Shown: one piece after another, positions 1 through 47,714 of the stretch
How positions within the stretch are numbered: position 1 is the first letter of the stretch
Layout of the letters: each line of letters begins with the position of its first letter
Virus record (IMG/VR): IMGVR_UViG_3300025382_000007
Coordinates: 1 to 57,364 of that record
Direction: 5' to 3' (one strand)
DNA: 57,364 nt
Origin: a virus
Lineage: Duplodnaviria > Caudoviricetes
Program-made: the position numbers and the translations under genes
The notes under the pieces: generated by a model
Seen by the model: the letters and a program-made list of their open reading frames with translations, nothing else
Told to the model about the DNA's origin: nothing
Databases searched by the model: none

Positions 1-909
1 GTAGTGACCGACAAAAGCACCGATGTATTCTTTCGGTACGATAGTACCGCGACGCATGATGTTTTTACCCGATGCGAGCTTGTTAAACATACGATCACAC
101 TTACTGACTTCTCTTTCATATCCATTTTCTTCCATCCACGCTCCGACTTGCCTGTAATCATGGCCAAAAGTTTCGATAAGACTCTTCGAATCATAGCTTC
201 TCACAGATATATTATTAGGATCTATTTTGTCAAAGTGTTCGCGGTGTGTTATACCACCATATACTACTTCAAGAAGGTACTTATAATAAGGATCTTCACT
301 AGGCTTATTCTTGTTGATCGGCTCCATCTGATAGTTAGCTTTAATCTCTAAGATAACGTTTTCTATCTTTTTATATGGTGTGTTATAATAGTTTAGTATA
401 GGAGTCTTATCACCTTTCCAGAAGAAGTAGAACGTTCGCTCTCTAACTTGTGGTACTCCATGCAGAAGACTCTTAGTACGATACAGAGTCATAGTATAAC
501 CGTGCTTATTACCAATAGCGATCAGCTGGTTTCTAATAGGCTCACCGATCTTTCCAGCTAGTGCAGGAGCGTTCTCTCCCCAGAATACTTTAGGCTGCAT
601 CTCACCTAAGACATATTCTGCAGATTCTAACATCCATTTATTATTTGGATTATGTTCGCCATAACCAGTAGATAACATTGATAATCCAGCACATGGACAT
701 ACACTAGAAACAACATCTACTTTATGTGGGTGTTTTCCACCTTCATCTAATAGATAATATGGAACTTCATAATCCCAATAATTGAGTAAATGCGCATCAT
801 GATTTTTAAATGGTGTATAACTTAAAATATAGTCTGGTCTGTTACCAAATACGGCCGCTGATGCTAGTGCTTCTCCACCAATGAGTGGAATAATTGCGGC
901 ATGCTTCAT
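1..909 (-). CDS. C5-cytosine DNA methyltransferase-like protein (3' end outside window; not in ORF track)
   Basis: Manual translation from ATG at 909 is open to position 1 (MKHAAIIPLIGG...VCPCAGLS...FWGENAP...GVPQVRERTFY). It has C5-MTase motifs IV (PC), VI (ENx) and VIII (PQxRxR); motif I is atypical (IPLIGG). Confidence 0.8.
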   Translation of the reverse strand, partial: MKHAAIIPLIGGEALASAAVFGNRPDYILSYTPFKNHDAHLLNYWDYEVPYYLLDEGGKHPHKVDVVSSVCPCAGLSMLSTGYGEHNPNNKWMLESAEYVLGEMQPKVFWGENAPALAGKIGEPIRNQLIAIGNKHGYTMTLYRTKSLLHGVPQVRERTFYFFWKGDKTPILNYYNTPYKKIENVILEIKANYQMEPINKNKPSEDPYYKYLLEVVYGGITHREHFDKIDPNNISVRSYDSKSLIETFGHDYRQVGAWMEENGYEREVSKCDRMFNKLASGKNIMRRGTIVPKEYIGAFVGHY

Positions 910-1995
910 TTAAATCTCCAAGATCTTAGTCAATTCATCACGCTGTACTTTCTTATCCAACGGATGATTATCATATAAACAGTCATGCTGATATTTAGCC
1001 AACTTTTCTAGCTGTGTGTTATCCATATTTTCTATATTAGCAATATTTAAACCGACATATGCATCACCATATATTACGCCTTCAACATCATCACATAATA
1101 GAATAGAACCAGCGTCTGCTACCTGCTGCACTCTAGATCTCCACCAACCTGAACCGGCGTGATAATATTTTGGAAGTAGACAACCCCAGTGCTTTACATA
1201 TTCTCTGCACATATCAGGTTCTTTTAGACGTTGTGCTTTATATTCACCACGTCGTGGACCATACATAGCAATATCCCATGTAAAATTATTCTTCTTAACT
1301 ACTGCATCATTCTTTTTATGATTAAGTGATGAAAACACCCAAGCTTTAATTTTAGTAGATTCTTCTTCAAAGAAAGCGTTTAAACCTATATCTTCTTCAC
1401 CAAAATTATTATGTGGACCACGATTTAGATTATAGGGATTAGGATTAAAGCTAAATAATTTATCATTTGACCATCCAAGTTTAAACTTACTCAAGTCACC
1501 GCCTGCATAAGCACAAATCATTAATTTATTTTGATAAGATAATACCTGCTCTATACTTTCTAGATAGTCTTGTTTATGAGCTCGAATAGTTGCTTCATCT
1601 GAAGATCCATAATAAAGATCTAATAGATATTGTCTAAATGGATTATACTTTTCTTCATCAAGTAAGTTACGTTTAAATTGTGGAAAACATGCCATAATTT
1701 GATCTACTTGCCAATCATCAAATGCAAGAATAGCATCAGGACGAGCTTTAATAGCATAAAGACCATCATATAAAAATTGACAAAATGACTGTATAGAATG
1801 AAGATATATAATCACACGATCATAACTTGATAGATCTTCACCAATATTTACTGGTCGTTGTTCTACTTCAAATCCCATATCTTCTAAACAGCGAATCAAT
1901 GAATAATGAGAGTTTAATATTCTTAATTCTTTAGTTAAGAAATAATCTCTAGTACATTGTTCTTTATTAAATCCAGTTATTAATATTTTTTTCAT
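910..1995 (-). CDS. GT-B glycosyltransferase resembling T4 beta-glucosyltransferase, probable hmC glycosylation
   Basis: 361 aa. LEDMGFEVE...DLSSYDRVII and RVQQVADAGSILLCDD resemble N- and C-terminal segments of T4 BGT as recalled; lies two genes downstream of dCMP hydroxymethylase. Confidence 0.6.
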   Translation of the reverse strand: MKKILITGFNKEQCTRDYFLTKELRILNSHYSLIRCLEDMGFEVEQRPVNIGEDLSSYDRVIIYLHSIQSFCQFLYDGLYAIKARPDAILAFDDWQVDQIMACFPQFKRNLLDEEKYNPFRQYLLDLYYGSSDEATIRAHKQDYLESIEQVLSYQNKLMICAYAGGDLSKFKLGWSNDKLFSFNPNPYNLNRGPHNNFGEEDIGLNAFFEEESTKIKAWVFSSLNHKKNDAVVKKNNFTWDIAMYGPRRGEYKAQRLKEPDMCREYVKHWGCLLPKYYHAGSGWWRSRVQQVADAGSILLCDDVEGVIYGDAYVGLNIANIENMDNTQLEKLAKYQHDCLYDNHPLDKKVQRDELTKILEI

Positions 1996-2446
1996 ATTTT
2001 ATCTCATGTTGTATGCCGGCTTCGTCAAACATTTCGGATGTAATTTTATAAGAATCTTTCCATTTATCTCTTATAGTTTCAGGATAACACATATATGCGC
2101 GTTTAATACCAACTTGTATTACACCTTTAGCACATTCAGAACATATTGGTAATCCATATACATATAAGTCTGCTTCATTTAAACTTACACCATTGAGTGT
2201 CGCATTATATATACAATTCATTTCGCCATGAACTACATACTTATATTTTGATTCTCTATCATTTAATCTATCATGTCTATCTTCAATATTTCTAGGAAAA
2301 CCATTGTAGCCTGTACTTAATATCTGACCACGTTCACCAACAGCTACTGCACCAATTTTAGTAGATGGATCTTTAGACCAAGTTGCTACATGTTTTGCTA
2401 GATTTAAATATTTAGATGACCAAGCTGAAGTGTCTTTCATAGACAT
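1967..2446 (-). CDS. cd: dCMP deaminase
   Basis: SKDPSTKIGA, GYNG, HGE and PICSEC zinc motifs. Confidence 0.92.
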   Translation of the reverse strand: MSMKDTSAWSSKYLNLAKHVATWSKDPSTKIGAVAVGERGQILSTGYNGFPRNIEDRHDRLNDRESKYKYVVHGEMNCIYNATLNGVSLNEADLYVYGLPICSECAKGVIQVGIKRAYMCYPETIRDKWKDSYKITSEMFDEAGIQHEIKYEKNINNWI

Positions 2447-3062
2447 GAAGAGATCCTACATTCCAGTAAATATCGCCACGATTAACTTTTAATTCTTTTG
2501 CTAATTTATTTAAAACATGATCTTGCCAAGCATAATCATTACGATAACCATAAACAACATCATTACTTCTCATTTGTACAATAGCATTTAATTTATTATC
2601 ACGAATTAAATATTGTACTGCATTTGTACACATAAAATCAGACATACCATGATAATTATAATCATGCCACATTGATGGTCTTGTATAAATCATAATAGCA
2701 CGACGTGAATCTGGATTATTATTAAGTTCATTTAAAGCATTATGATATTGATAATGATTATCATGTGACCATATACACCAACCATAATTTGAATTGATAT
2801 AACCATCTTCATCTGCCACTTTCTTCCATATGGCAGGTGTATCTTCTAGATCTCTAACATTCAGAGACATCGACTTATACCATTCTAGTTCTTTACGAAT
2901 ATATTCTTCGTTTACTTCGCCAAAGATAGTAGGTTCATTGGCAATAAAGTTAGCGCCAATGAGTTCAATCGTCTTAACACCAGTCTTATCAATTACAAAC
3001 TTTTGTTTTTGTAATTGATCTTTAAAGTATTCTCTAATATTAGATACATTAGCAACCAGCAT
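2412..3062 (-). CDS. gp42: dCMP hydroxymethylase (T4 gp42-like, thymidylate synthase family)
   Basis: DFMCTNAVQYLIRD, MRSNDVVYGYRNDYAWQ and WNVGSLHVY match T4 gp42, including the Asp (RND) that specifies dCMP rather than dUMP. Confidence 0.9.
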   Translation of the reverse strand: MLVANVSNIREYFKDQLQKQKFVIDKTGVKTIELIGANFIANEPTIFGEVNEEYIRKELEWYKSMSLNVRDLEDTPAIWKKVADEDGYINSNYGWCIWSHDNHYQYHNALNELNNNPDSRRAIMIYTRPSMWHDYNYHGMSDFMCTNAVQYLIRDNKLNAIVQMRSNDVVYGYRNDYAWQDHVLNKLAKELKVNRGDIYWNVGSLHVYERHFSLVI

Positions 3063-3462
3063 CTTCTACCTCATTACTAGCTGATATTGTTACAGTATTA
3101 AAATCTGCAATAGAATATGTTGCTACAGGTATTTTTTTATTTAAGAAATCACGCATTGAATCTTGACCTTCCATCTTACCGCGTGAAAATGCTACAAAGA
3201 AAGAAGCATAGTTAATAAGATCTTTTGCTGAATCTTCAAGCGATTCAAAGTTTGGTTTATAGTTCTTATCATATTGCATGGCTTCCATAACAGAACGCAT
3301 ACGAAGCACTTTAGCTTGCATAGTATCTAGAATAGTTTGACAACCATTTGGATAATAGTCAGCTTGTTTAATAGTTGAATTGGGATTCTGATAATCATTT
3401 GATTTTTTGTTCTGTAAGTCTATACACTCTTGCAGAACTTTTATTGAATAACGCTCACTCAT
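3049..3462 (-). CDS. Nucleotide-modification-associated domain 1 (Nmad1/DUF1599-like) protein
   Basis: KKSNDY...KVLR...ESLEDSAKDLINYA pattern; located in a base-modification cluster. Confidence 0.7.
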   Translation of the reverse strand: MSERYSIKVLQECIDLQNKKSNDYQNPNSTIKQADYYPNGCQTILDTMQAKVLRMRSVMEAMQYDKNYKPNFESLEDSAKDLINYASFFVAFSRGKMEGQDSMRDFLNKKIPVATYSIADFNTVTISASNEVEDAGC

Positions 3463-4040
3463 GCTACCTCACTTGTATAATGAACATTTTCACGGAAAAA
3501 TGCATCACCATTTTTCATTGCATTCTTATGATCATAATATAATTTCATAGTAAACTGTGAAGGTCTTACATATTTTTCAAACGTTTTAGCATTTGCTAAA
3601 AGATGAAAAGCTACCGTATAATGAGTAGAAGTTTTAAATACTTTACCAGATACCAGAAAGTCTACTATATCAATATTTTTCCTAAATGTCAATACATCTC
3701 TTTCATTAAAAGAGAACCATTTTTCAGCCCATCTTTTACATTCAAAAGTTTTTCCATTTTCTAAATCAATAACATCATATGCATAAGAAGTTCTATCGGT
3801 ATGATCAAAATCTTTAGGATTAAGTTGCATACCAGTTTGTTGAGCTAGTGCATGTTCAATCACAGCTTTTTCTACACATTCATATACATTTGAATAATTT
3901 CTTTTATTATGATTACGCGCTTTACAATTATAAATTTCATCTGCCATTTTTTTAAATTTAGCATTAAGTTCCGGAGTCTTTTTTACATATATAGGCTCCG
4001 GAACTAATATCGTATCTGCATAATCTTTTAAAGTTTTCAT
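3459..4040 (-). CDS. Putative PD-(D/E)xK endonuclease
   Basis: E(HAL)...YDVID...FECKRW arrangement typical of the restriction-endonuclease fold. Confidence 0.5.
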   Translation of the reverse strand: MKTLKDYADTILVPEPIYVKKTPELNAKFKKMADEIYNCKARNHNKRNYSNVYECVEKAVIEHALAQQTGMQLNPKDFDHTDRTSYAYDVIDLENGKTFECKRWAEKWFSFNERDVLTFRKNIDIVDFLVSGKVFKTSTHYTVAFHLLANAKTFEKYVRPSQFTMKLYYDHKNAMKNGDAFFRENVHYTSEVA

Positions 4041-4041
4041 T

Positions 4042-4446
4042 TTAATCCTCGAAGATTTTACTCACAAGTCCATGATTACCTTCATGCGACGGTCCAACCC
4101 AGCCCTCGGGTTTAATAAGATCTGGAAGTCCAAGTGGGTTAGGTCGTGAAGGCTTAACACCAGGAGTCTTATTCATATTAGCTTTTAGAACCTCGTCCCA
4201 TGCTTTGTATGAATTTACACCAAAACCATCAAGTGTACCAATTGCTACTACACATAGATCAATAAGTGCATCGACTACATCTTCAGCAGACTTAGCTTCT
4301 TTAAGTTCATTTAACTCTTCTTGTAAGAAGTTAGCACGAAACTCTAAAAACTTTGCAAGCTTATCTTTATCCATAGCATTTACAACGGGATGTACCTTAT
4401 AATGAAGATGCATTTTATAAATATCATCTACCCAGTTAGAACTCAT
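4042..4446 (-). CDS. MazG-like/PRA-PH nucleoside triphosphate pyrophosphatase (candidate dCTPase/dUTPase)
   Basis: EELNEL...DVVDALIDL, EVLKANMNK, DLIKPEGW motifs. Confidence 0.8.
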   Translation of the reverse strand: MSSNWVDDIYKMHLHYKVHPVVNAMDKDKLAKFLEFRANFLQEELNELKEAKSAEDVVDALIDLCVVAIGTLDGFGVNSYKAWDEVLKANMNKTPGVKPSRPNPLGLPDLIKPEGWVGPSHEGNHGLVSKIFED

Positions 4447-4458: not shown

Positions 4459-5040
4459 TCATATTAGATCGAAATTAATAATACAGCGATAAGTTTCTTT
4501 TGGATTTGTAGAGCAATGATATCTTGCTCCATCAAACATTACAAATCTTCCTTTCTTTGGACTCACTCTTTTATGTTCTTTTAATTCTACATTCTTTGAA
4601 CCAAACTTCGTATCATACATCGTCTGTTCGTATAGAATGGTGTCACCATCAGAATCGTTAACATAATACACGCACGCGTAGTGTGGTTCTGGCACGTCGA
4701 TATGTATGCCGTTATGTTCTTTAACGAATTTAGGATTCAATGGTACTTGAAGAAAGGCTCTATTGTAGAGTATATCTTTAATTTCTATTTTTGTCTTTTC
4801 AATTATAGTGTTGATGATCGGAACGGAGATGGCTTCATAGTATTGAGACACTATACCCATCTTAGGATGTTTAAACATCTGATTAAAACCGTAAGTAGGA
4901 TACTTCTGCGGCTTTGATGGATACGTCATATCGTCTACAAAAGTCCAGTTTCCTTTCATAATTAATTTGTGATATTCGTCTTGTTTTTCTACTGGAATAA
5001 CATCATCAATTACAACAGTATCTTTTAATTGTAGATCCAC
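4459..5040 (-). CDS. 2OG-Fe(II) oxygenase
   Basis: HID...YYVNDSDGDT...SPKKGR..FDG..YH.S...R.IINF facial triad plus Arg. Confidence 0.85.
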   Translation of the reverse strand: MDLQLKDTVVIDDVIPVEKQDEYHKLIMKGNWTFVDDMTYPSKPQKYPTYGFNQMFKHPKMGIVSQYYEAISVPIINTIIEKTKIEIKDILYNRAFLQVPLNPKFVKEHNGIHIDVPEPHYACVYYVNDSDGDTILYEQTMYDTKFGSKNVELKEHKRVSPKKGRFVMFDGARYHCSTNPKETYRCIINFDLI

Positions 5041-5588
5041 TCTGGAGCCTCACGATTTTTCCATCTATGTAGGTTAGTCTTACCAATTTTATAATAATTA
5101 CGATAATTGTCAATAGGATTATTAGATATGATGTACTTCTTATCCATACAAGAAGGCATAGGCGTCCAATCAAAATCTTGTAGATTTTTAGGTGGTGATT
5201 GAAGCATGTAGCTCAATTCACCAAAACACTTATGTTCTTTTTCATAGCGATAGGTGTATTCAGCCATAAGAGCAAAGAAATGATCTACAAGCCAATTATA
5301 ATTTTCAATGCTGCTCCGAGTCCATACACAACTAGGGTGATTAATGTGCGTAGCTGAGTATAATACATTATCGCGACCATCTCCTAGTAACCATAGTTTC
5401 TTCTTACGAGTCTTAACAGTTCCATCTATTTGTTCTATATCTGCTTGTATCTGTATTTCTTTACCATCGAGGATACGATGAGCAGTAGACAGTAGCTGAG
5501 CTGACTCGAGTATCATCTTGACTACGTGCTTGTCGACCATCCACTGCGCAGCTTGAACAGGATTCTCATCGATATAGAATATATTCAT
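5025..5588 (-). CDS. Pyrimidine-dimer DNA glycosylase (DenV-like family) protein
   Basis: MNIF...DKHVVKMILESAQLLSTAH, HINHPSCVW, YRNYY signature of this phage family. Confidence 0.65.
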   Translation of the reverse strand: MNIFYIDENPVQAAQWMVDKHVVKMILESAQLLSTAHRILDGKEIQIQADIEQIDGTVKTRKKKLWLLGDGRDNVLYSATHINHPSCVWTRSSIENYNWLVDHFFALMAEYTYRYEKEHKCFGELSYMLQSPPKNLQDFDWTPMPSCMDKKYIISNNPIDNYRNYYKIGKTNLHRWKNREAPEWIYN

Positions 5589-5722: not shown

Positions 5723-6156
5723 AGAGTCTTCTCCATAACATAAGCGTCATAGTTATCGGCGTAATAGTCATCTATCATTCCAACTATATTATAACCTCTT
5801 TTTGAATAAATGTCAATAGCTTTTTTATTATTAACATATACCTCAAGAATTATCTTTTTATAAGAAGAAGAGTAATGATCTACAAAATCCATTAAGAAGC
5901 TACTCAAACCTTTTTTCTGATATTGAGGAGCTATAGAGATAGACTCAACTCCAATAGTCTCATGATCTATAAAAGAAAGTATTAGAGCTCCTGCGGCTAT
6001 ACCATCTACCATTAAAAGAAAAACATCGTATCCATTTTTAAAACACTGCTCATAATATTCTAGATCTTCATGAAATATCTTCTCGAAACTTACGTCGTCG
6101 ATATTCTTTATGATTACGGCATCTTCTATTCTCGCTGGGATTATTTTCTTTTCCAT
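5719..6156 (-). CDS. GNAT acetyltransferase (RimI-like)
   Basis: ISIAPQYQKKGLS, LEVYVNNKKAIDIY..GY, YY...DAYVMEK motifs. Confidence 0.88.
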   Translation of the reverse strand: MEKKIIPARIEDAVIIKNIDDVSFEKIFHEDLEYYEQCFKNGYDVFLLMVDGIAAGALILSFIDHETIGVESISIAPQYQKKGLSSFLMDFVDHYSSSYKKIILEVYVNNKKAIDIYSKRGYNIVGMIDDYYADNYDAYVMEKTL

Positions 6157-11242: not shown

Positions 11243-12711
11243 TATGGCGCCTTTACGTTAAGTTTCACTTGATAAATCTTATAACGAAAACGTTCTTCAT
11301 TATATATCTTAATTCGTTCCATAAAGTGTAGTATGGTGAAGTTCTTCTTGTTCTTCCATGTTAGATCGTCTGCTATGTCGTAAAGGGTAGCAGCAGTCTT
11401 AGTATCAGACTTACGTAACCCCCTGCCAATGGACTGAAGATTCCGTATGCGAGACTTGCTTGGGCTAGCAAAAATAATAGAATGAAGATTCTTAATATTG
11501 ACTCCGGTAGAAAAAGTACCAAAGCTAGCGACAATAATAGCATCTCGTTCATTTTCTACAATCCTTCTAATCTCTTCGCGTTCCTCACCGTCGACTGCGC
11601 CAGAGACAAAGAATATCTTTCTATCTCCAGCTTCTTTCTCTAACATGTCTCTTAGTATTTTACCATGTTTTTCAACAAATTGAAACAATAAAAGTGTGTT
11701 CCCGGTAAGTGATAACGCTAAATTTTTAATAAAGTTATTTCTCTCTGGAAGTCTTACTAGATAGTCTATTTCATCCTGATACTTCATCACCGATACCATC
11801 TTACGAACTTCATCGGAATAACTAAGTACTAAAGCTTTAATAGAGAATTCAGCAAGATGTTTCTTATCTATTAACTCTTTAGTAGATATAACTTTACGAA
11901 CAGGTCCAAACAATCCTTCAAGAACAAGCTTGTTTGTTTCACTTCCATCCAGAGTTCCGGTAAAGCCAAAGCGATATTTACAGTTATCAAGCTTAGAAAG
12001 AATAGAAGTAAGCGATTTTGCTTTAAAAAGATGCGCCTCATCACCGATCACTACATCAAAATTTGAGAAATACGTCTTAGGTAGTTTGTAAATTGACTGC
12101 CAGGTCGTGATGGTAATAGGCTTATCTGTATCTTTAGGTTGTCCAGAAAATACACGATGTACCCACATATCAGAGTTAAACCCGTAGTCAGCAAAATCAG
12201 AGGCAAGCTGACTAACAAGAGAAGTAGTTGGAACGATAATAAGAAACTTACCTTTAAGCAGTCCAAGATAATACCTCATAATTAAATATATTATAAACGA
12301 TTTTCCAGAAGCAGTCGGGGATAGTAGTAGTGTTCTACGTTCTCTAATAGCATGTATAAAAGCTTCTAATTGATAATCTCTAGGTTTAAATTTAGGAGAC
12401 AATTTATTAATAAATTCATTTGCTTCTTTAATAGAAAACTCTTCAGAACTAAAATCTGACAAGTGTTCTACTATATATTCTCTAGTACGACAAAATTCTT
12501 CAACATATCTTAAAAGACCGGCATATAATAGTCCGGACATTGGATTATACAAATATATAAATCCATCCCAAAATTTACTTCTATAGCTTGGCATATACTT
12601 AGCGCCTGGCACAGCAAACTTGAAATACTCTCTAAGTTCCATGGCTATAGAAGGTTCGCATTTTATTTTGATGTAGACTTCATCATATTTTTCAATTTCA
12701 ACAATATCCAT
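11242..12711 (-). CDS. uvsW: UvsW DNA helicase
   Basis: PRDYQ, SPTASGKS, DEAH and QSIGRGLR SF2 motifs. Confidence 0.96.
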   Translation of the reverse strand: MDIVEIEKYDEVYIKIKCEPSIAMELREYFKFAVPGAKYMPSYRSKFWDGFIYLYNPMSGLLYAGLLRYVEEFCRTREYIVEHLSDFSSEEFSIKEANEFINKLSPKFKPRDYQLEAFIHAIRERRTLLLSPTASGKSFIIYLIMRYYLGLLKGKFLIIVPTTSLVSQLASDFADYGFNSDMWVHRVFSGQPKDTDKPITITTWQSIYKLPKTYFSNFDVVIGDEAHLFKAKSLTSILSKLDNCKYRFGFTGTLDGSETNKLVLEGLFGPVRKVISTKELIDKKHLAEFSIKALVLSYSDEVRKMVSVMKYQDEIDYLVRLPERNNFIKNLALSLTGNTLLLFQFVEKHGKILRDMLEKEAGDRKIFFVSGAVDGEEREEIRRIVENERDAIIVASFGTFSTGVNIKNLHSIIFASPSKSRIRNLQSIGRGLRKSDTKTAATLYDIADDLTWKNKKNFTILHFMERIKIYNEERFRYKIYQVKLNVKAP

Positions 12712-13183
12712 TCATTAATTTCCGTTTCTCATGCATCTTTTTCATAGATTCAGCAATTTTTAATTTAGTTTCTTCAGAATGTTCAGTACCTAATCTACTA
12801 TTTCTAATATTTTGTTTTGTTTCATTAGATCTTTTTTTATTTAAATTATTAATTTTAATTTTTTGCTTTGTTTGTTCGTCTCTAGATTTACCTATTTTAG
12901 CTATAGACATCTTGTTTTTATGTTCTTCTGATTTTTTTATTCCTGTTAAAGAAATACCACCTTTTTTACCACCGATTGATTGCTTTGTTTTAATAATTTC
13001 TTCTTTACCAATATGGCCAAATAATCCCATCCAAGCAAGATAGTCTTCTTGTTTACCATATTCTTCCCATAATTTTTTATGTGCTTCAGCATGTTCTTCT
13101 ATAGTTAAACAAATAATATTAGATGGATCGTCTGATCCACCCATATGTTTTGGTATTATATGATGATGGTGATAAATATTCAT
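12698..13183 (-). CDS. Free-standing HNH homing endonuclease with NUMOD3 repeats (true start likely 13183)
   Basis: HHIIPKHMGG..DDPSN..LTIEEHAEAH plus KSEEHK/RSNETK/HSEETK repeats; SD AAGGAGG precedes the ATG at 13183. Confidence 0.88.
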   Translation of the reverse strand: MNIYHHHHIIPKHMGGSDDPSNIICLTIEEHAEAHKKLWEEYGKQEDYLAWMGLFGHIGKEEIIKTKQSIGGKKGGISLTGIKKSEEHKNKMSIAKIGKSRDEQTKQKIKINNLNKKRSNETKQNIRNSRLGTEHSEETKLKIAESMKKMHEKRKLMNGYC

Positions 13184-13198
13184 AGCTGTGTCCTCCTT

Positions 13199-13235
13199 GA
13201 CATAGAGTCCGTAGAGCGCCAACTCGTGACGGACA
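13199..13235 (-). repeat. Structured leader element, copy 1 (homing-endonuclease 5' UTR)
   Basis: gacatagagtccgt-agag-cgccaa-ctcg-t-gacggaca; GTCCGT/ACGGAC and GAG/CTC stems; near-identical to 14557-14594. Confidence 0.8.
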
Positions 13236-13239
13236 TAAC

Positions 13240-13247
13240 TATTTATA
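13240..13247 (-). promoter_or_regulatory. T4-type late promoter (TATAAATA) for the HNH gene
   Basis: Exact TATAAATA on the minus strand in the intergenic gap. Confidence 0.8.
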
Positions 13248-13251
13248 TATT

Positions 13252-13686
13252 TTATGCTCCCATCGTAAACTTCTGCCACTCAATTACATTTTTGATAATA
13301 AAGTTTCTATTAATAATAGTCTTTATTATAGAATCAAGAAAGTCGATCTTCTCATGCTGCATACCGATCTTAAGACTCAGATTAATCATATCCTGATCTG
13401 CATCAATATACATTGGAATATCACCCTTTAGTATCATACCACGCGGCGGTAGCTTCCAACCTTTTTGTTTAGTCTCTTCATTGGGTCCTTGAGTAAGGAA
13501 CTCAAACTTATCTAACTTCAATTGCTTCATCTCAGACTCAAGTTTTCGAAGTAATAGTCTTTCTTTAATAAGAATATTATAATATTTAGAATGAAGTTTT
13601 GGAATCGTTAGAGCTTCATCACCAAGCTCTGTTTTATCTATCTTTGTATCAGACTCCCATAAGTTCATTATTTCTTCGATATTCAT
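13252..13686 (-). CDS. uvsY: UvsY recombination mediator
   Basis: IPKLHSKY, YIDAD, IKNVIEWQKF; GGAGA RBS before the ATG at 13686; synteny with uvsW. Confidence 0.92.
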   Translation of the reverse strand: MNIEEIMNLWESDTKIDKTELGDEALTIPKLHSKYYNILIKERLLLRKLESEMKQLKLDKFEFLTQGPNEETKQKGWKLPPRGMILKGDIPMYIDADQDMINLSLKIGMQHEKIDFLDSIIKTIINRNFIIKNVIEWQKFTMGA

Positions 13687-27914: not shown

Positions 27915-28586
27915 TTATCTCTTTTTACATCTCTCGTTGTGATATCTTCCTATATTACCAGGATTACCAATGAAATCACAATAAGTGCACTTAATTTTTT
28001 TATTATTTATATCATTAAAAACTGTGGTACATTTTATCTTATTTCTGTGCTCATCAGATAATGGCTTTCCTCTTCTCATCTCAGCAGAAATTGCTATAGC
28101 CTTTGAATTATCTTTTCCTTTATTCTTACCCATCATAGAAGCACTTCTTTTTTCTCTTACTTCTATTTCAGAAGATCTATTATCTCTAGTCTTAAGACCT
28201 TTTAGATATCGTTCTCTAACTTCTGGATTCTGCATCGCTTCTTTTGTCTTTATCGATATCTTTTCTTTGATAGATAATTTATTTAAATTATTTTCTTCAC
28301 TCCAATGACCAAATTTATGATTGCGAAGATTGTAGTATCGTTTACCTAATTCTTCTTTATTTATTAAAGATAGCCAATGATGCTCAACTAAATATAGTTC
28401 TTCTTTAGTTTTAATATTAGATATAATTATGCGGCGTTTAAAATCATTTGTTCTTTTTTTATACGCTCTATTCATCCAACCAGAAGAGCATATATATCCA
28501 TCGTCTATAGTTCCAAAATGAGCGCCAACATAATATCTTTTGTGTTTCTTATCTAACCAAATATATATAAATCCATATTTTTCCAT
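27915..28586 (-). CDS. Free-standing GIY-YIG (Seg-like) homing endonuclease
   Basis: YGFIY...YYVG.H....DGYICSS, E, YYN; NUMOD-like LSDEHR and C-terminal CxxC. Confidence 0.88.
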   Translation of the reverse strand: MEKYGFIYIWLDKKHKRYYVGAHFGTIDDGYICSSGWMNRAYKKRTNDFKRRIIISNIKTKEELYLVEHHWLSLINKEELGKRYYNLRNHKFGHWSEENNLNKLSIKEKISIKTKEAMQNPEVRERYLKGLKTRDNRSSEIEVREKRSASMMGKNKGKDNSKAIAISAEMRRGKPLSDEHRNKIKCTTVFNDINNKKIKCTYCDFIGNPGNIGRYHNERCKKR

Positions 28587-33243: not shown

Positions 33244-34539
33244 CTAATCTTTCATTTCAGTATGAGTAAAATCAATTTCTTTAATTCCATATTCTTCTGG
33301 ATCAGGTCTTCTTATTTTTCCATAAACACCAGAAACTACCATACCGGTCATACGATATATTGCTGCACCAAGAATTCCTATATAATAGTAATAATGATTA
33401 TTGCAAGTATGATACCAGTTTTCTCCTTCCATAAACATACAAGCTCCTGCACATAATTGCAATACAGGACATTCTGAACACTCTTTTCTATTAGACCAAT
33501 GCCAAGCAGTATTTAATTTGATATTATCAAAGTCTTGAACATTTCCAATTCTGTGTTTGCCAAGATCTCCAGTATCTTGACATGTCATAACATTACCTAA
33601 TAAATCGACAGTAATAACATCTTCTTTATCCATTAAACAACCTTGATACAAAGAACTAGATGGTCTTTGCGTTGCTATTGAATTTACAAAACTATTAATG
33701 GCATTATTTAAAACAGGTAAAATATTTTCTTTTGGTTTCATTGCAGCTAATGCTACATTATTTGTTAATTTATCATATTGTTCTTTAGTAAATGGTTTAC
33801 TGCCTTCAGTATGATAAACAATTCCAACTAAATTTACACTGACATTCTCGTCATCAAATTTTTTCTTAAAGAATTCTACTATCTTTTCTATATCAAAATT
33901 ATCAGGAGTTAGAACGGCATTAAATGACATTCTTCCTCTTCTTAATTTTTGTAGTTTATTAATCATATTAAATTGTTTTTTGTCTTCAAAGGGATCAGGT
34001 CCACGAAGATGCTGTCCCGGTCCATCGTGTGAAATCACAAAAATTATATTATATTTTTGAACATATTCTATTATTTCTTCTGTAATTAAACTACCATTTG
34101 ATGTTATTAAGAATTCTGTTTTTGGAAATTTCTCTGATAATTTCTCTAATAGAAATTTAACTTTGTTCCAGTATAATAGTGGTTCTCCTCCCCAGAATTC
34201 AATTTTATCTGGCTCTCCTTCCAGCCACCTATCAATATTATTCATAAATATTTCAGCGTCTCTGATATTAGTCTTAGACGAATACTTAACTTCTTTTTGT
34301 TGATTGCAGTAAGAACAAGAATAATTACAGCCCAAACCTAATTGGATCTTTATCTTTTTTAATTTTTTACTTTTCTTACCTGGATTTTCTGGAGAAACTC
34401 TAGTCGCAACTTCATAATTGTGTTCTTTAATATTCTGAACTAAATTCACACCATTCTCATCATATAGAGTAGAAGTATGTGGATCATATGAAATGTAATG
34501 AGTTAGACCATTTCTATCTACTAATTCTATCTTAAACAT
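33244..34539 (-). CDS. Radical SAM/SPASM protein (copy 2)
   Basis: CNYSCSYC, WGGEPLL, SHDG; SPASM C..GNVMTC...CSECPVLQLCAGAC...C. Confidence 0.95.
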   Translation of the reverse strand: MFKIELVDRNGLTHYISYDPHTSTLYDENGVNLVQNIKEHNYEVATRVSPENPGKKSKKLKKIKIQLGLGCNYSCSYCNQQKEVKYSSKTNIRDAEIFMNNIDRWLEGEPDKIEFWGGEPLLYWNKVKFLLEKLSEKFPKTEFLITSNGSLITEEIIEYVQKYNIIFVISHDGPGQHLRGPDPFEDKKQFNMINKLQKLRRGRMSFNAVLTPDNFDIEKIVEFFKKKFDDENVSVNLVGIVYHTEGSKPFTKEQYDKLTNNVALAAMKPKENILPVLNNAINSFVNSIATQRPSSSLYQGCLMDKEDVITVDLLGNVMTCQDTGDLGKHRIGNVQDFDNIKLNTAWHWSNRKECSECPVLQLCAGACMFMEGENWYHTCNNHYYYYIGILGAAIYRMTGMVVSGVYGKIRRPDPEEYGIKEIDFTHTEMKD

Positions 34540-34540
34540 A

Positions 34541-34837
34541 TTATCTGCCTTTAAAGTAATTAAGGTTTATGATCCACGTTTCATCATTAATTTTTTCTAA
34601 AATAGGTATATTATTTGATATAATAAAATCTTTATTATCTAATACAATAGATATATATTCTTTATTTCCAATCAAAATTTCTGGTATCTGTATAAATGTT
34701 GATTGTTTCTTATCTTCTAAATCACTAACTAATGAATTATAATAATATATATCGTTTAATTGATACATAAAACTATCAATTATTGGCCATTGTTTTATTT
34801 CCCATATATTGCTATCTATGAATGGTTCATCAATCAT
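34541..34837 (-). CDS. Hypothetical protein
   Basis: 98-aa ORF translationally coupled in the operon. Confidence 0.55.
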   Translation of the reverse strand: MIDEPFIDSNIWEIKQWPIIDSFMYQLNDIYYYNSLVSDLEDKKQSTFIQIPEILIGNKEYISIVLDNKDFIISNNIPILEKINDETWIINLNYFKGR

Positions 34838-35895
34838 ATTGAAATCTTTATTTTTAACTTTGACATATCATAACTATTTTTAAAATTATCTAGCATTAAT
34901 ATCCAATTTGCTTTATTGATAGATAGACAAGATACTGCTTTAGATTTATTTTTAGCATAATCTTTAAGACCACAATCTGATATGAATTCTCTCATTTGCC
35001 ATCGATGTGTATTAGGTTTACCAGGAATTTTAGTCCATGGATCTTTAGTGTGTATTGCCCATTTTTGGAAATCTTCAGTATCAAAGAAATGAAAAACTGT
35101 TTTAATCTTTTCTGGATCCATTTCTGATAACAATTCATATATACCATTATACCAATCAAAATTGAAAATACAATACCATCTTAGATCTGCTATTGTTTCT
35201 ATTTTTCTTGGAGATGCGTTTATAGATGGTGTTAAGAAATCTATTAATTCTTGATTTATATATTTCTTATAATCTTTATATATTGTTTCTTTTGTTCCTA
35301 GTGTATGGTGAAAGAAAGCAACAGATCTATCTTCAGCAAAGAAATCATCGGTAGGTCCAAATAACTGGTTTCCTTGAAACCCAGTAACCCAAATACAATC
35401 TTCTGTTTTACTTCTAATAATATTTGTTGGAAATATTTTTATTTCATAATTATAATTATTCTTAATAAATCTATCAAATATATCACCAGATTCTATAATA
35501 GAAGAATATGTACCATATACCGTGATCTGTTCTTTTGGAACATATTGAGATAAAAATAAAAGAACAAAAGTACTATCAATTCCACCAGACCAACATACTT
35601 TTATTTGTTTATTTTTTGATGCTAGTTCTTTGCATCTTTCTTCGCATATAGAATAGAAATCTTTATTAAAAGAAAGATCAAAAGAAGGAATTGGATGTTT
35701 ATTAGACATCATTAGATAATGAGGAACTTTACCAGTTCTATCATAAACTGGATTTCTATTTAAACCAAATTGATTATAAGATTTAAAAATATTATTATAG
35801 TCAATATTAAGATAGGGTGAAATTTGATTCACCCTATCTTCTTTTATCATATTAGATAAAAGATGAACGTTATAGTGTAGAACTTTGAACGTCAT
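34834..35895 (-). CDS. Asparagine-synthetase-like N-type ATP pyrophosphatase
   Basis: WSGGIDST PP-loop, VTG..G.QLFG, FFDT.DFQ.W. Confidence 0.8.
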   Translation of the reverse strand: MTFKVLHYNVHLLSNMIKEDRVNQISPYLNIDYNNIFKSYNQFGLNRNPVYDRTGKVPHYLMMSNKHPIPSFDLSFNKDFYSICEERCKELASKNKQIKVCWSGGIDSTFVLLFLSQYVPKEQITVYGTYSSIIESGDIFDRFIKNNYNYEIKIFPTNIIRSKTEDCIWVTGFQGNQLFGPTDDFFAEDRSVAFFHHTLGTKETIYKDYKKYINQELIDFLTPSINASPRKIETIADLRWYCIFNFDWYNGIYELLSEMDPEKIKTVFHFFDTEDFQKWAIHTKDPWTKIPGKPNTHRWQMREFISDCGLKDYAKNKSKAVSCLSINKANWILMLDNFKNSYDMSKLKIKISI

Positions 35896-36121
35896 TCACT
35901 TCTTTTCCCCAATCGGTACGGTTCCATAATCTTTCGTGAACCCAATAAGCGATGGAGTTAACTACTAGAGCAAAAGAGATAACACCAAGACCTACCCATG
36001 GATTACCTGATGCAATCCATCCACCAAAGAAGTTGGTCAATGATACAATGATACGCCAAGTCACAACTTTAACAAAACTGCGCTTTTGTTGTTCTGTCCA
36101 CTTATTATTCAAATCAAACAT
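35870..36121 (-). CDS. DUF2061-like membrane protein
   Basis: RSFVKVVTWRI...Y..HERLWN..WG. Confidence 0.8.
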   Translation of the reverse strand: MFDLNNKWTEQQKRSFVKVVTWRIIVSLTNFFGGWIASGNPWVGLGVISFALVVNSIAYWVHERLWNRTDWGKEVNDVQSSTL

Positions 36122-36163
36122 ATTATTTCTCCATAAAGTTTATATTGGTTATTAACCAATAAT

Positions 36164-36193
36164 ATTATAATATACTTTTTAAAAAAAGTAAAC
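36164..36193 (-). promoter_or_regulatory. Sigma70/early-type promoter inside the island
   Basis: GTTTACT-17 nt-TATAAT on the minus strand, upstream of the DUF2061 gene. Confidence 0.7.
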
Positions 36194-36200
36194 ACAATAA

Positions 36201-36854
36201 TTATCTTTGTTGGTCAATATATGTTCTAATCTTTAATGGATTAATTTCATCTGTAGGCCCATCGCCAGAATCAGGGGCAAAGACAAATAGAATAACTTCT
36301 TCATTATCAGTAATAAAATTATGTAATGTGTTTCTTCTCATAAAGAATGCTTCACCTTCAACAACATTATGATACTTATTATTATCTAATTCAATTTTTC
36401 CATTTCCTTTAAGAATAAGACCTATTCTATGACTAGGATGAGTATGTAAAGTTTGATACATAGCTTTTGGAAAATGAACATAATTAACTACAGGATCTCC
36501 TAATCTACCTGGAGTAATTGCTGTAGTATTAGTACCACCATCAATATAAGATAGATTACCAATATCTAATTCATTCTGAATAAAGAATTGATTTTCTTTA
36601 AAACGTAAACCAGGATAATTTATAATAACAGCAGATGCATCCGGTCCACATGATATTGTGTATACTTGACCTACCATAAAAGCGCCATACGCATTTTTAA
36701 TATGCGTAGCACCATCTTCATATGAAGCATTACGTAAAAGAATATAATCAGTACCAGATGGTATAAATGTTTTAACTTCGTTTGGCTCCAACTTTGTGAT
36801 ATTAAGCATCCATCTATCGGTGCTAATATATTCACTTTCTAAAGTCATTATCAT
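36201..36854 (-). CDS. Cupin-domain protein
   Basis: QTLHTHPSHRIG..L.G.G, H.F.T cupin motifs. Confidence 0.8.
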   Translation of the reverse strand: MIMTLESEYISTDRWMLNITKLEPNEVKTFIPSGTDYILLRNASYEDGATHIKNAYGAFMVGQVYTISCGPDASAVIINYPGLRFKENQFFIQNELDIGNLSYIDGGTNTTAITPGRLGDPVVNYVHFPKAMYQTLHTHPSHRIGLILKGNGKIELDNNKYHNVVEGEAFFMRRNTLHNFITDNEEVILFVFAPDSGDGPTDEINPLKIRTYIDQQR

Positions 36855-37959
36855 AGTTTATGAACTCCTCGGTTGGATACTCATTATATATATTCATTTT
36901 CTCATCAATCATTGTTGCTAATTTTTTTCTTCTTACTGGAGTATTTAAACTACCAAACTTATCTTTATCTTTAAGATATTCATCATCTTTATTAAAATTG
37001 TATATATATTTTTTTGATTCTAGTTTCATATCTTTAAAATTATCAATATTAAAATTTTGCATTGAGTTCATTGACCACAATTGAAAATTATCATTATTAA
37101 AAAAAGATGTATAACCTATTTCAAATTCAATTTTATTAACATTATTACTAAAAGGAATCATTCTAAAATAACACGATTGCCATTTGGTTGCAAAGATAAT
37201 CCACCAAAGAAACATAGCATTATTTTCTATTTTTATAGGAGCATTATCACATATTTTTTTCCATATAAAATAAAGATTTTCAGCTGAGTTTTTATCTTTA
37301 TATATTGGTAAGAAATGATCAATAAGTTCTATCATTGGCCCATCTTGAACATAATTATACAAAAAGTTTATATTTCTATTTCTTAGATAATCTAAAGAAA
37401 AATTTGGTAAATACAGTTGGTCAGATTGTTCACCACTAATAACTATATATTTTTTTGATCCAATATAATTAATATATTTTGAAGATGGAATACATTCTAT
37501 ATCATATGGTGATATAAAGTTATAATAAAAATTTGGATTCTCTCCTATACTAAATTCATTCATTAATAATAATATATTATCTTTAATAATAGTTTTTGGA
37601 AAGTTTTTAAAAAAAGAAGTAACTACCATAGTAGAGTCTATACCTCCACTATACATAATAGCAATCTTTCTATTAGTGTTTATTGCTTGCTTCATAAGTT
37701 CTTTAGATCGCATATCACATATTTCAGAAAATGAAATATCTATCTTTTTATACTTTGGTATTTCCAAATGTGATAAAAGTTTATAATTTAATGGAATCTT
37801 TATTGAATTTGATCTATCATAAAAAACATAGTTTCCACCCACTATATGAAATAACATTGAAAATAGTTTACCACCAGGTATTGATTCTAAATTCTTTTGA
37901 TTGATGGGATTTCGAAAAATATCAATACTATTATAATATATAAGTTTTTTCATAATCAT
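36832..37959 (-). CDS. Second asparagine-synthetase-like ATP pyrophosphatase
   Basis: YSGGIDST, SGE.SDQL, FF....FQLW. Confidence 0.8.
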   Translation of the reverse strand: MIMKKLIYYNSIDIFRNPINQKNLESIPGGKLFSMLFHIVGGNYVFYDRSNSIKIPLNYKLLSHLEIPKYKKIDISFSEICDMRSKELMKQAINTNRKIAIMYSGGIDSTMVVTSFFKNFPKTIIKDNILLLMNEFSIGENPNFYYNFISPYDIECIPSSKYINYIGSKKYIVISGEQSDQLYLPNFSLDYLRNRNINFLYNYVQDGPMIELIDHFLPIYKDKNSAENLYFIWKKICDNAPIKIENNAMFLWWIIFATKWQSCYFRMIPFSNNVNKIEFEIGYTSFFNNDNFQLWSMNSMQNFNIDNFKDMKLESKKYIYNFNKDDEYLKDKDKFGSLNTPVRRKKLATMIDEKMNIYNEYPTEEFINYDNDFRK

Positions 37960-38687
37960 ATACCTAACTTAGCATAGTTCCACATTTTATTTTCAAAATC
38001 TTGATAAATCATTGGTAAATTTTTTATATCTTTTTCTTTTTTTAATAAATTAGCATATTCCATTTGTATAGATTCAGATTCTGAAACTGTTACTAAGTCA
38101 CAAGATATTTTAAATTTTATTTCTCTTGCAGCCTGATATAAATCAATATTTCTATTTTTTGCATATGCAGAAGTAATAGGATATTTTTGATAATCATCTT
38201 GGTTTAGATTGTTATTTAATATTTCATTAACTTCAAACATTTTTCCAATAAATGAATATACATTATAAGGTAATCTATTAAATAAAGCAGTTGATTGATA
38301 TAAAATATTTTGAATTATTTCATCCATATATTGTAATTTTTGAGAAGTTAAAATATATTCATATAATTCATTTTTATCTTTTATATTTGTATCAAAAATC
38401 CAACTTTGACGTGGTTTATCAAAAACAATTTTATATATTTTTTCATATGGAATTTTAATAATATTTTCATTTTCTACATAAAGAGAATTCCTTGTTATTT
38501 TTGTGTGATCAATAAATGCTTCTGTTGTTTCATAAAATTTTGCTAATCCAATAATTCTTCCACTAGATGCTAGCATTAATACAGGAACACTTATTGTATT
38601 ATTAATAACAATATTATTCAATCTCCTTCTGAAAAAATAAGGAGAAAAAGATTCATGATAGTCATCAATTTCTTTTTCGGTTAACAT
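37956..38687 (-). CDS. Hypothetical protein
   Basis: 243-aa ORF with a helical C-terminus, coupled to the ATP pyrophosphatase gene. Confidence 0.6.
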   Translation of the reverse strand: MLTEKEIDDYHESFSPYFFRRRLNNIVINNTISVPVLMLASSGRIIGLAKFYETTEAFIDHTKITRNSLYVENENIIKIPYEKIYKIVFDKPRQSWIFDTNIKDKNELYEYILTSQKLQYMDEIIQNILYQSTALFNRLPYNVYSFIGKMFEVNEILNNNLNQDDYQKYPITSAYAKNRNIDLYQAAREIKFKISCDLVTVSESESIQMEYANLLKKEKDIKNLPMIYQDFENKMWNYAKLGI

Positions 38688-38688
38688 T

Positions 38689-39426
38689 TTAACCCTTCTG
38701 AGGAACTTTAGATAGTTTTAATATATTTCTACACGAACCTATTTCACCTTCAACAAAAGTATCAAAAGCAACACTTTGTCTTTTTACATTAGTTTCATTT
38801 GGTGGAACTTTATGTTTTAAATATGATGGAAATAATAATAATTTTCCATTTTTTGGTTCAAAATATTCTACATTTGATGTATATTTTGAAGGATGTGATG
38901 GATTTAAATATATTAATGTACTATCATTCATTTTAGTAATAGTAAAAGGTGAAGCATTTTCTGGATTATCAAAGAAAAATACTCCAGATATGATCGAATT
39001 TACATGATTATGTTCTGGATGAGAGACACCTGGTAATAATCCTGTGCACCAAGACATAGTAATATATAATCTAAATCGATTATTTTTTTCTCCAATAACG
39101 TTTTTTGTATAAAAATCTATATGATCTTGTAAATGTTTTTTTAATTCAGAAAATTCTGGATATTCTAAAATATATCTTTCTTTAAATTCTACAAATTCTG
39201 TATGTTCTGAAATAAACTGTTCTTCAGAACCTTTATAATCTTTATTCTCTAATATATATCTATCATAATAATTTTTATTATAATATTCCATAGTTTTATC
39301 AAGTGTATTTTCATCAATTTTTTTTCTAAGATTAGGTAAAGCATTTAATAAAATATCTTCATCTAAATCTGATTCATAAACCGGAGAAGGAAAAATAGGA
39401 ATTATTCTATACTTTGACATAATCAA
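38689..39426 (-). CDS. 2OG-Fe(II) oxygenase (HxH type, TIGR02466-like)
   Basis: IFPSPV, SW, HNH.NS.ISGV, LLLFPSYLKH.V, R.S.AF. Confidence 0.85.
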   Translation of the reverse strand: MIMSKYRIIPIFPSPVYESDLDEDILLNALPNLRKKIDENTLDKTMEYYNKNYYDRYILENKDYKGSEEQFISEHTEFVEFKERYILEYPEFSELKKHLQDHIDFYTKNVIGEKNNRFRLYITMSWCTGLLPGVSHPEHNHVNSIISGVFFFDNPENASPFTITKMNDSTLIYLNPSHPSKYTSNVEYFEPKNGKLLLFPSYLKHKVPPNETNVKRQSVAFDTFVEGEIGSCRNILKLSKVPQKG

Positions 39427-41007: not shown

Positions 41008-41016
41008 AATAACCCT

Positions 41017-44011: not shown

Positions 44012-44012
44012 T

Positions 44013-45993: not shown

Positions 45994-46007
45994 AATATAA
46001 CCTTATA

Positions 46008-46955: not shown

Positions 46956-46984
46956 AGTTTTTTTCCTTTTGACTATATAGTGAT

Positions 46985-46992: not shown

Positions 46993-46996
46993 TAGT

Positions 46997-47707: not shown

Positions 47708-47714
47708 TTTATCT

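Follow-up and report, generated by a model that had tools for sequence, protein, structure and literature searches.

T-even phages carry glucosyl-5-hydroxymethylcytosine (glucosyl-5hmC) in their DNA, and three further kinds of phage system have been described that share traits with the locus studied here: clusters of cytosine-C5 methyltransferases (C5-MTases), TET (5mYOX) enzymes and glycosyltransferases (GTs) (PMC8256090; bioRxiv 10.1101/2023.12.21.572611), the CmoX/CmoA/CmoY 5-carboxymethylcytosine system of Synechococcus phage S-B43 (PMC12783734) and the arabinosyl-5-hydroxycytosine clusters of RB69 and DLP3 (PMC13326640). We analysed a 57,364-base stretch of DNA (hereafter the window) that constitutes the whole of IMG/VR virus record IMGVR_UViG_3300025382_000007 and has a CheckV completeness of 32%. 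Its first 4446 bases hold a contiguous cluster of seven open reading frames (ORFs), all on the minus strand and each abutting or overlapping its neighbours by 4-35 nt (Table 1), which a first-pass annotation made from the sequence alone had read as a cytosine hypermodification cluster; all seven ORFs are present. Because the record ends inside the C5-MTase-like gene, the cluster extends past coordinate 1, and IMG/VR contig L002, which encodes module proteins identical to those of the window, continues beyond that point with genes for a DUF3310 protein, a 284-aa phrog_1574 protein (GT-A-like), gp45, gp44 and gp62, so that the module sits in a T4-like backbone with gp46 on one side and gp45 on the other.

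In common with T-even phages, the window encodes an ortholog of the T4 dCMP hydroxymethylase gp42 (63% identity), a dCMP deaminase, a GT of the GT-B fold directly downstream of gp42 and a probable DenB-like nuclease, and relatives of the window carry true homologs of T4 alpha-glucosyltransferase (AGT) in the position of this GT. Together with the nucleoside triphosphate pyrophosphatase, these features bear out the analogy to T4 drawn in the first-pass annotation. Unlike in T-even phages, however, the pyrophosphatase belongs to the MazG family and lacks similarity to gp56, the GT lies outside the sequence families of AGT and T4 beta-glucosyltransferase (BGT), all genes are gathered in one module between gp46 and gp45, and Nmad1-like and C5-MTase-like genes are constant members, whereas T4 has only the adenine methylase Dam. 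The glycosyl-5hmC core is of a known kind, and what appears to be new, judged by the literature searched (supplements not covered), is the one-module architecture, the GT family, the MazG, Nmad1-like and DenB-like accessories and, above all, a constant methylase subfamily with PC-Ala and EN-Ala motifs; no description of this gp42-linked subfamily was found in the same literature.

Our preferred reading, for which we see slightly better than an even chance, is that the module carries out T4-style pre-replicative replacement of cytosine followed by glycosylation, with the C5-MTase-like protein (hereafter MTase-like protein) taking care of leftover cytosine. The MazG-family pyrophosphatase would lower dCTP, the gp42 ortholog would convert dCMP to 5-hydroxymethyl-dCMP for incorporation into DNA, the dCMP deaminase would feed dTMP synthesis, and the DenB-like nuclease would probably attack cytosine-containing DNA. 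After replication, the BGT-like GT-B enzyme would add a sugar to 5hmC in DNA, and the MTase-like enzyme would perform S-adenosylmethionine (SAM)-dependent 5-methylation of residual unsubstituted cytosine. Taken separately, it is quite probable from the gene content that the virion DNA is glycosyl-5hmC DNA, and we propose only tentatively that the MTase-like protein methylates cytosines escaping replacement as a second protective layer. Which restriction, CRISPR and type IV defences a phage evades depends on the hypermodification of its DNA, which is also a source of enzymes for epigenome sequencing; the module described here couples a T4-type 5hmC supply to an exchangeable tailoring slot, with an atypical cytosine-C5 enzyme always alongside.

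Hydroxymethylase, glycosyltransferase and accessory proteins

The thymidylate synthase (TS)-like protein of the module matched the sequence of the T4 gp42 structure 1b49 at E 8.8e-89 and T4 gp42 itself at 63% identity (E 6e-102), in agreement with the original gp42 call. It retains the catalytic Cys (SDFMCTN), aligned to the T4 residue, the Asp for dCMP specificity at the position of E. coli ThyA N177 (RNDYAWQ), where the mutant PDB entry 6l18 has Asn and both T4 gp42 and the window protein have Asp, and, at the third position ahead of this Cys, an acidic residue. These residue criteria for dCMP hydroxymethylases were taken from PMC13326640, according to which the phage TS homologs RB69 gp48 and DLP3 gp80 carry the same substitutions, yet give 5-hydroxy-dCMP as product. 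Since the active-site residues do not discriminate gp42 from 5-hydroxy-dCMP synthases, we compared the window hydroxymethylase directly with RB69 gp48 (5hodCMP synthase) and found 26% identity; two PDB entries of 234-238 aa annotated as 'thymidylate synthase', 9iqu and 9iqc, were matched at E of about 4e-9.

These comparisons bear on the alternative that the TS homolog makes 5-hydroxy-dCMP, from which the GT builds glycosyl-5-hydroxycytosine, as in RB69 and DLP3. The enzymes of those phages share the Asp and acidic substitutions with gp42, and their clusters, like the module, combine a TS homolog with GTs (PMC13326640). However, we rejected this route in view of the 63% identity to T4 gp42 as compared with 26% to RB69 gp48; the match to the T4 gp42 structure is likewise far stronger than that to 9iqu and 9iqc, and no arabinose-pathway genes were found beside the window module. 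We regard a 5-hydroxycytosine pathway as scarcely probable, and the window TS homolog belongs, by sequence comparison, to the T4 hydroxymethylase type and not to the flavin-dependent hydroxylase type of RB69 and DLP3. The dCMP deaminase is ordinary T4 equipment and uninformative on the type of modification.

Of 2290 candidates, 572 proved to be relatives of the 361-aa GT at E <= 0.001, almost none of them named. The GT matches phrog_14998 (function unknown) at E 4.7e-42; searches returned no Pfam match at E <= 10 and no PDB sequence match. An AlphaFold2 (AF2) model built from 39 relatives (pLDDT 91.3, pTM 0.90) has a GT-B fold, and T4 BGT (1nzd) was its best match both with Foldseek (E 8.8e-9, TM 0.58-0.61) and with VIA-align (Z 17.9, rmsd 3.8, 299 of 351 residues aligned), where glycogen synthase (Z 16.6), SenB (16.0) and T4 AGT (15.8) followed. 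A profile of the GT aligned to T4 BGT at E 0.016 and over 61 N-terminal columns only. As modelled, the window GT thus resembles BGT most, yet it is not a sequence member of the BGT family. Its gene lies directly downstream of gp42, as b-gt does relative to gene 42 in T4, and with this position and the structural match the earlier description of the GT as BGT-like proved apt. GT homologs of 25-29% identity occur in T4-like phages of Aeromonas, Stenotrophomonas (IME13), Erwinia, Providencia and Morganella; Aeromonas phage 25, for instance, encodes a gp42 57% identical and a GT homolog 29% identical to the window proteins. From this context, the acceptor would be 5hmC in duplex DNA, and the sugar might be glucose from UDP-glucose, as for T4 BGT. 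The window lineage is without the UDP-galactopyranose mutase and epimerase found beside the same GT in other lineages.

Two observations concern the surroundings of GT homologs. In Aeromonas phage 25, three tandem hypothetical genes encoding about 350 aa each (L009:4893-8164), the middle one being the 29%-identical GT homolog, may judging by sequence be paralogous DNA glycosyltransferases in a gp42-bearing phage. The closest relatives of the window (GT 96% identical) have an additional 130-aa ORF between the deaminase and GT genes (L003:7610-8002 and L004:7610-8002), which gave a sub-threshold match to the UDG superfamily (PF03167, E 6e-4) and whose family is present in 19 loci; the window is devoid of this ORF, and its deaminase gene overlaps the GT gene directly.

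Among the accessory genes, the MazG-like protein scored 34.6 bits against PF01503 (cut-off 21.3) and has homologs in Xanthomonas phage Xp12 and in T4-like rhizobiophages, and BLASTP revealed no similarity to T4 gp56 (E 0.17). From its context, we propose that it is a dCTP-clearing enzyme and a functional analog, not a homolog, of T4 gp56. The 193-aa protein had been annotated as a PD-(D/E)xK nuclease. DenB is a T4 nuclease specific for cytosine-containing single-stranded DNA, and the 193-aa protein is probably DenB-like: it gave a protein-atlas structure match to an 'Endonuclease IV' PF26887 cluster (TM 0.69, 173 residues aligned, feature score 0.95), 2 of its 14 homologs bear the PF26887 tag, and a weak hhalign alignment to T4 DenB (E 0.017, probability 2.7%) pairs YAYDV...FECK with YAWDV...VEVK and thereby aligns the D...ExK motif. 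No Pfam, PHROG or PADLOC family was assigned (the Pfam set searched may not include PF26887), and tblastn against phage records returned no match. For the Nmad1 label, support exists at the family level, where 20 of 27 members match DUF1599 (PF07659) at E <= 1 with a best value of 3.6e-6, and is lacking for the window copy, which remained below the cut-off (12.8 bits against 25, E 0.16); a profile of the family found nothing meaningful among PDB sequences (best E 0.18). The Nmad1-like protein corresponds to the C-terminal half of phrog_18404 and the MazG-like protein to its N-terminal half. Overall, we consider the gene calls firm for the hydroxymethylase, the dCMP deaminase, the MazG family, the GT-B glycosyltransferase and the C5-MTase fold, and weaker for the Nmad1/DUF1599-like and DenB-like proteins.

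Linkage and the tailoring slot in related loci

An IMG/VR scan with an alignment of the MTase-like protein confirmed 540 of 598 matching stretches, of which the best 80 loci were fetched, and 83 loci in all were searched with the window proteins. gp42 was present in each of the 33 loci having at least 7 kb upstream of the MTase-like gene, with the MTase-like gene downstream of gp42; these informative loci represent 27 groups at >= 95% nucleotide identity. Their further companions were the deaminase (29 loci), the MazG-like protein (27), the Nmad1-like protein (25), the window GT family (10) and the 193-aa protein (5). On the other side, phrog_1574 and gp45 were found in 53 of 53 loci having at least 3 kb downstream, and DUF3310 in 23. 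The first-pass annotation had named lack of linkage in relatives as an observation that would speak against its proposal; gp42 and the MTase-like gene are instead linked throughout the informative loci and also in the distant cultured phage XG4 (see below).

The slot between the deaminase gene and the MTase-like gene is variable, the MTase-like gene being its constant 3' neighbour. It is occupied by T4 AGT homologs (PF11440, E 1.3e-71) in 18 loci and by the window GT family in 16 loci, some of them together with a UDP-galactopyranose mutase and an NAD-dependent epimerase. Other loci have a 350-377-aa family combined with an inositol-phosphate-synthase-like and a 5-hmdU-DNA-kinase (HMUDK)-like protein, and elsewhere we found a GT4-like protein or a TET-associated GT (TAGT) with a UDP-glucose dehydrogenase, TAGT being present in two relatives. 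The occupants are of types known to act on 5-hydroxymethylpyrimidines in DNA, and the variability of the slot is the pattern expected of 5hmC tailoring in DNA. Throughout a large clade of uncultured aquatic T4-like phages, the module is conserved as a unit while the contents of its tailoring slot are swapped. In seven related loci (e.g. L025:5961-8890), the slot encodes a protein resembling inositol-1-phosphate synthase and another that aligns with the helical domain of 5-hmdU DNA kinase (PF18723, E 2e-11), a sequence combination that hints at phosphorylation-based, non-sugar tailoring of 5hmC.

Two phages inform on how the module is inherited. Pseudoalteromonas phage XG4 encodes an MTase-like protein 31% identical and a gp42-type protein 55% identical to those of the window, the latter with E 5.6e-62 to T4 gp42. 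The genes are ordered as gp42-type gene, 131-aa ORF, nucleotidyltransferase/kinase fusion, two GT-like proteins and MTase-like gene, and the downstream gene is not gp45; the fusion protein is of the UDP-arabinose type used in the RB69/DLP3 clusters (PMC13326640). Stenotrophomonas phage DLP6 has the backbone, comprising gp55, gp47, gp46, peptide deformylase, phrog_1574 (67.5% identity), gp45, gp44, gp62 and RegA, and neither a gp42-type gene nor any PF00145 gene was found in it. Because XG4 keeps the layout in another context and DLP6 has the backbone without gp42 and the MTase-like gene, the module appears to be gained or lost as a unit.

A more distant homolog of the MTase-like protein, gp080 of cyanophage S-TIM5 (33% identity), has no adjacent GTs and lies on the strand opposite to its neighbours. 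Its gene is four genes from that for the 'thymidylate synthase' gp076 (L087:5766-6602), which has Asp at the ThyA N177 position (GVPLDMFRY) and in which the third position ahead of the catalytic Cys is taken by another Cys instead of an acidic residue; from these residues, gp076 may act on dCMP, e.g. as a dCMP methylase.

The distribution of the MTase-like gene could also be explained if it were a conserved backbone gene flanking a recombination hot spot, serving as a homology arm for cassette exchange, while its product works elsewhere, for example on host DNA, on RNA or by binding cytosine-DNA. That all close relatives share a single backbone running from gp46 through the module to phrog_1574 and gp45, in all 53 loci with downstream DNA, fits this explanation, as does the orientation of the S-TIM5 homolog and its lack of GT neighbours. 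It fits less well that DLP6 possesses the backbone without gp42 and the MTase-like gene, that XG4 retains gp42, GTs and MTase-like gene in a different downstream context, and that S-TIM5 encodes, four genes away, a TS homolog whose dCMP-specificity residue is Asp. We consider a mere flanking role unlikely.

The phrog_1574 protein (L002:3997-4851), encoded beside gp45, was considered as a module member and rejected, being a backbone gene that is present also in the module-less DLP6, in Sinorhizobium phiM12-like phages, in a Pelagibacter phage and in cyanophages. It gave GT-A-like signals (Anp1, E 0.0022), and Anp1 is assigned to 32% of the members of its Atlas neighbour cluster.

The C5-methyltransferase-like protein and its candidate roles

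The full-length copy of the MTase-like protein (L002:2412-3611) comprises 399 aa and matches PF00145 with 69.2 bits over profile positions 58-322. Its AF2 model (pLDDT 86.8) predicts a confident beta-alpha-beta N-terminus, and the top Foldseek matches were DIM2, ZMET2, MET1, DNMT1, M.HaeIII and M.HhaI at E of about 1e-11; PDB entry 8yf3 is also among the fold matches. Across 31 homologs, motifs I (IPLIGG), IV (CPCAGLS), VI (GENAP), VIII (Q-x-R-x-R; QVRER), IX (R-E...G-x-P) and X (C-Q-N-V-P) are invariant, and so are residues C73, E112, Q154/R156/R158, R319-E320, N346-V347-P348 and Asp55. Relative to PDB methylases, Ala replaces the Gln of PCQ in motif IV and the Val of ENV in motif VI, whereas the motif X Asn is retained, which is the methyltransferase state and unlike the Arg of CmoX. 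The catalytic Cys, the Glu of ENx, QxRxR and the motif X Asn do not vary, and DNMT1, M.HaeIII and M.HhaI have the same fold. As far as motifs and predicted fold can tell, the protein is thus a DNA cytosine-C5 enzyme that has its catalytic machinery intact, forms a separate subfamily with its homologs and has SAM as a putative cofactor. The earlier label of an atypical C5-MTase holds for the PF00145 fold, the catalytic motifs and the non-canonical PC-Ala and EN-Ala, with the qualification that only 303 of the 399 residues lie within the window.

A profile of the MTase-like protein retrieved 370 proteins at E <= 1e-30 from 1.84 billion cluster representatives. Of the 150 best representatives, 130 fitted the motif IV pattern; the catalytic Cys is followed by Ala in 111 of these, by Ser in 13, by Gly in 5 and by Thr in 1, and in none by Gln. 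Since only sequences with G-[LFMIV]-S behind the variable position could fit, PCQ-A-FS types may have been missed among the 20 that did not. ENAP is present in 100 of the 150. Four long forms of the subfamily (P0338, P0319, P0287 and P0301; 598-1462 aa) have K/E-rich low-complexity C-terminal tails and retain VCPCAGLS, IPLxGG and QNVP, with GENAP in three of the four, and they look eukaryotic or giant-virus-like by sequence. One of the four carries a zf-CXXC domain (E 6.6e-7), a domain that binds unmethylated CpG.

The first-pass annotation had pointed out that a C5-MTase has no obvious substrate in DNA whose C5 is already substituted, and had concluded that substitution is partial or that the route is new; this paradox is real and is sharpened by the linkage described above. 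Methylation of leftover cytosine is the role that we favour, because the cytosine-contacting residues and the motif X Asn match those of true methylases and one member has a zf-CXXC domain. If it is true that the protein acts in this way, these phages would have a two-layer protection scheme unlike that of T-even phages; if it does something else, the altered pocket residues would belong to a new DNA-modifying activity.

One such activity would be a dedicated later step of hypermodification. The protein would then either use its catalytic Cys, by the covalent Cys-C6 mechanism, on cytosine that already bears a C5 substituent, in the form of 5hmC or its sugar adduct, or transfer a group bulkier than methyl from a cofactor that is not plain SAM. 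C5-MTases can derivatise 5hmC with thiols in vitro, and the altered pocket residues are those at which C5 methylases are engineered to take a broader range of cofactors; M.HhaI Q82A, for example, has reportedly been engineered to accept bulkier transferable groups. A later step would be consistent with the invariant position of the gene, which borders the tailoring slot on its 3' side in 27 distinct loci as well as in phage XG4, with the replacement of Gln by small residues and of Val by Ala next to C5, Gln never having been seen among the pattern-matching representatives, and with an N-terminal cofactor region unrecognisable to PF00145. There is also a precedent in CmoX, a phage C5-MTase homolog with another chemistry (PMC12783734). 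Yet the motif X Asn is retained as in true methylases, the motif IV pattern is open to the omission of PCQ types noted above, and no partner enzyme or cofactor-synthesis gene is co-conserved, a CmoA-like gene being present in 0 of 4 related records. We rate this role as rather unlikely, though a shade less so than the flanking role discussed above. If true, the virion DNA of this widespread freshwater and marine T4-like clade would carry an undescribed cytosine derivative together with a swappable sugar code. Between partial substitution and a new hypermodification route, sequence alone cannot decide, and the altered active-site motifs keep the new route open.

The modified base could, finally, arise post-replicatively from the product of the MTase-like protein, either by a TET route (5mC to 5hmC to sugar) or by a CmoX route (5-carboxymethylcytosine from Cx-SAM). 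TET-type clusters likewise pair C5-MTs with GTs or kinases (PMC8256090), and they share with the relatives of the window a C5-MTase homolog beside GTs, the slot of two relatives being occupied by a GT of the TAGT family. However, no TET/JBP gene was found: Tet_JBP (PF12851) had no match in any of five records (the window and four related records, 47-91% complete), which is weak evidence since the control genomes were silent too, and each of the five contains exactly one PF00145 gene. Since gp42 would supply 5hmC pre-replicatively, a methylase is not needed for the 5hmC precursor, in contrast to those clusters. With the CmoX/CmoA/CmoY system of Synechococcus phage S-B43, the shared trait is a C5-MTase-fold enzyme suspected of a reaction other than plain methylation. 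A weak CmoA-like gene is present at window positions 42034-42648 (TIGR00740, E 1.6e-18), but its 65-67 bits compare with a cut-off of 193, the model also matches 8 of 14 control genomes, and the gene is missing from all four related records. The MTase-like family moreover lacks the hallmarks of CmoX (PMC12783734), having VCPC in place of SPPC and the Asn of QNVP in place of the carboxyl-binding Arg-350 (GRMVP of 8yf3, at the M.HhaI N304 position), and no CmoA or amide ligase is conserved alongside it. The CmoX/CmoA reading was rejected for the absence of the CmoA-like gene from the related records and the missing CmoX hallmarks, and a post-replicative origin, which is already largely refuted, seems to us very improbable, if not quite as remote as the 5-hydroxycytosine pathway.

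Several points weigh against replacement by 5hmC, glycosylation and methylation of leftover cytosine as the function of the module. As regards methylation, the MTase-like protein was matched in 16 phage records only, none of them of the T-even type; Aeromonas phage 25, which has gp42 and a GT homolog, was found to have no PF00145 gene, and classical hmC phages do without this MTase. The Gln-to-Ala/Ser/Gly/Thr change of motif IV and the ENV-to-ENA change sit around the C5 and cofactor site, and N-terminal motifs I-III are not aligned by the PF00145 and PDB profiles, the matches beginning at profile position 58 or query residue 63. The DenB-like nuclease and the pyrophosphatase argue for near-complete substitution in this phage, and if replacement is complete, a C5 methylase would be left without a substrate in the phage DNA. 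Linkage in all informative loci partly reflects shared descent, because these loci come from one phage clade with a conserved backbone. As regards glycosylation, T4 BGT leads glycogen synthase, SenB and T4 AGT by only 1-2 Z units, and Phage C48C1 has a 36%-identical GT homolog and no gp42-type gene in its genome, so that membership of the GT family alone is no proof of a DNA substrate.

Gene layout and other features of the window

The window contains the T4-type core genes gp46/gp47, gp55, UvsW, UvsY, major head protein, portal, sheath, tube and terminase, and its called genes are on the minus strand, bar a few short plus-strand ORFs. Upstream of the module core lie two genes (Table 1), 2OG-Fe(II) oxygenase-like and Pyr_excise-like, each of which was detected in a minority of the 83 related loci.

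Table 1. Genes of the module and adjacent features in the window
Feature	Position	Strand	Evidence
C5 DNA cytosine methyltransferase-like gene	1..909	-	PF00145, 42.7 bits; first 303 of 399 residues
GT-B fold glycosyltransferase, 361 aa, presumed DNA 5hmC glycosyltransferase	910..1995	-	AF2 model, Foldseek/VIA-align best = T4 BGT
dCMP deaminase, 159 aa	1967..2446	-	PF00383, E 6.1e-17; phrog_174, E 4.3e-37
T4 gp42-type dCMP hydroxymethylase, 216 aa	2412..3062	-	E 8.8e-89 to 1b49; 63% identity to T4 gp42
Divergent Nmad1/DUF1599-like helical protein, 137 aa	3049..3462	-	DUF1599 E 0.16, relatives better
Probable T4 endonuclease IV (DenB)-like nuclease, 193 aa	3459..4040	-	D89...E100-x-K102 motif; structure match
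MazG-family nucleoside triphosphate pyrophosphohydrolase, 134 aa	4042..4446	-	PF01503, E 2.6e-8; phrog_671, E 1.2e-17
2OG-Fe(II) oxygenase-like gene, outside module core	4459-5040	-	PF13640 below cut-off; phrog_274
Pyr_excise-like/phrog_624 gene, outside module core	5025-5588	-	PF03013 below cut-off; phrog_624
Sigma-70 consensus TTGACA-17-TATAAT, possible module promoter	5788..5816	-	12/12 matches, upstream of gene run

The sigma-70 consensus match falls within the 3' end of a GNAT gene, and promoter-like counts in the window are at chance level (61 as compared with 53 +/- 7.7 in shuffles), so that even this perfect match is only a lead; no minus-strand terminator was found in a scan of the window. 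CpG and GpC have observed/expected ratios of 0.74 and 1.05, respectively, which are too mild for inferring a methylase specificity. The stretch, or near-identical sequence, is present in 24 freshwater metagenome runs; half or more of the sampled words were recovered in 19 of them, and several may represent the sample of origin. These runs are uninformative on base modification, because all are kept as contigs.

Positions 33244-49076 form an AT-rich island with a GC content of 24-29%. It carries two radical-SAM genes (33244-34539 and 47808-49076), several 2OG-Fe(II) oxygenase-like genes (38689-39426, 44672-45993 and 46997-47707), an aminotransferase class IV-like gene (40198-41007) and the weak CmoA-like gene mentioned above. 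In addition, homing-endonuclease-like ORFs (phrog_655 and phrog_314) are inserted among core genes at positions 12698-13279 and 27915-28586, one between the helicase (UvsW) gene and uvsY and one among head-completion/neck genes.

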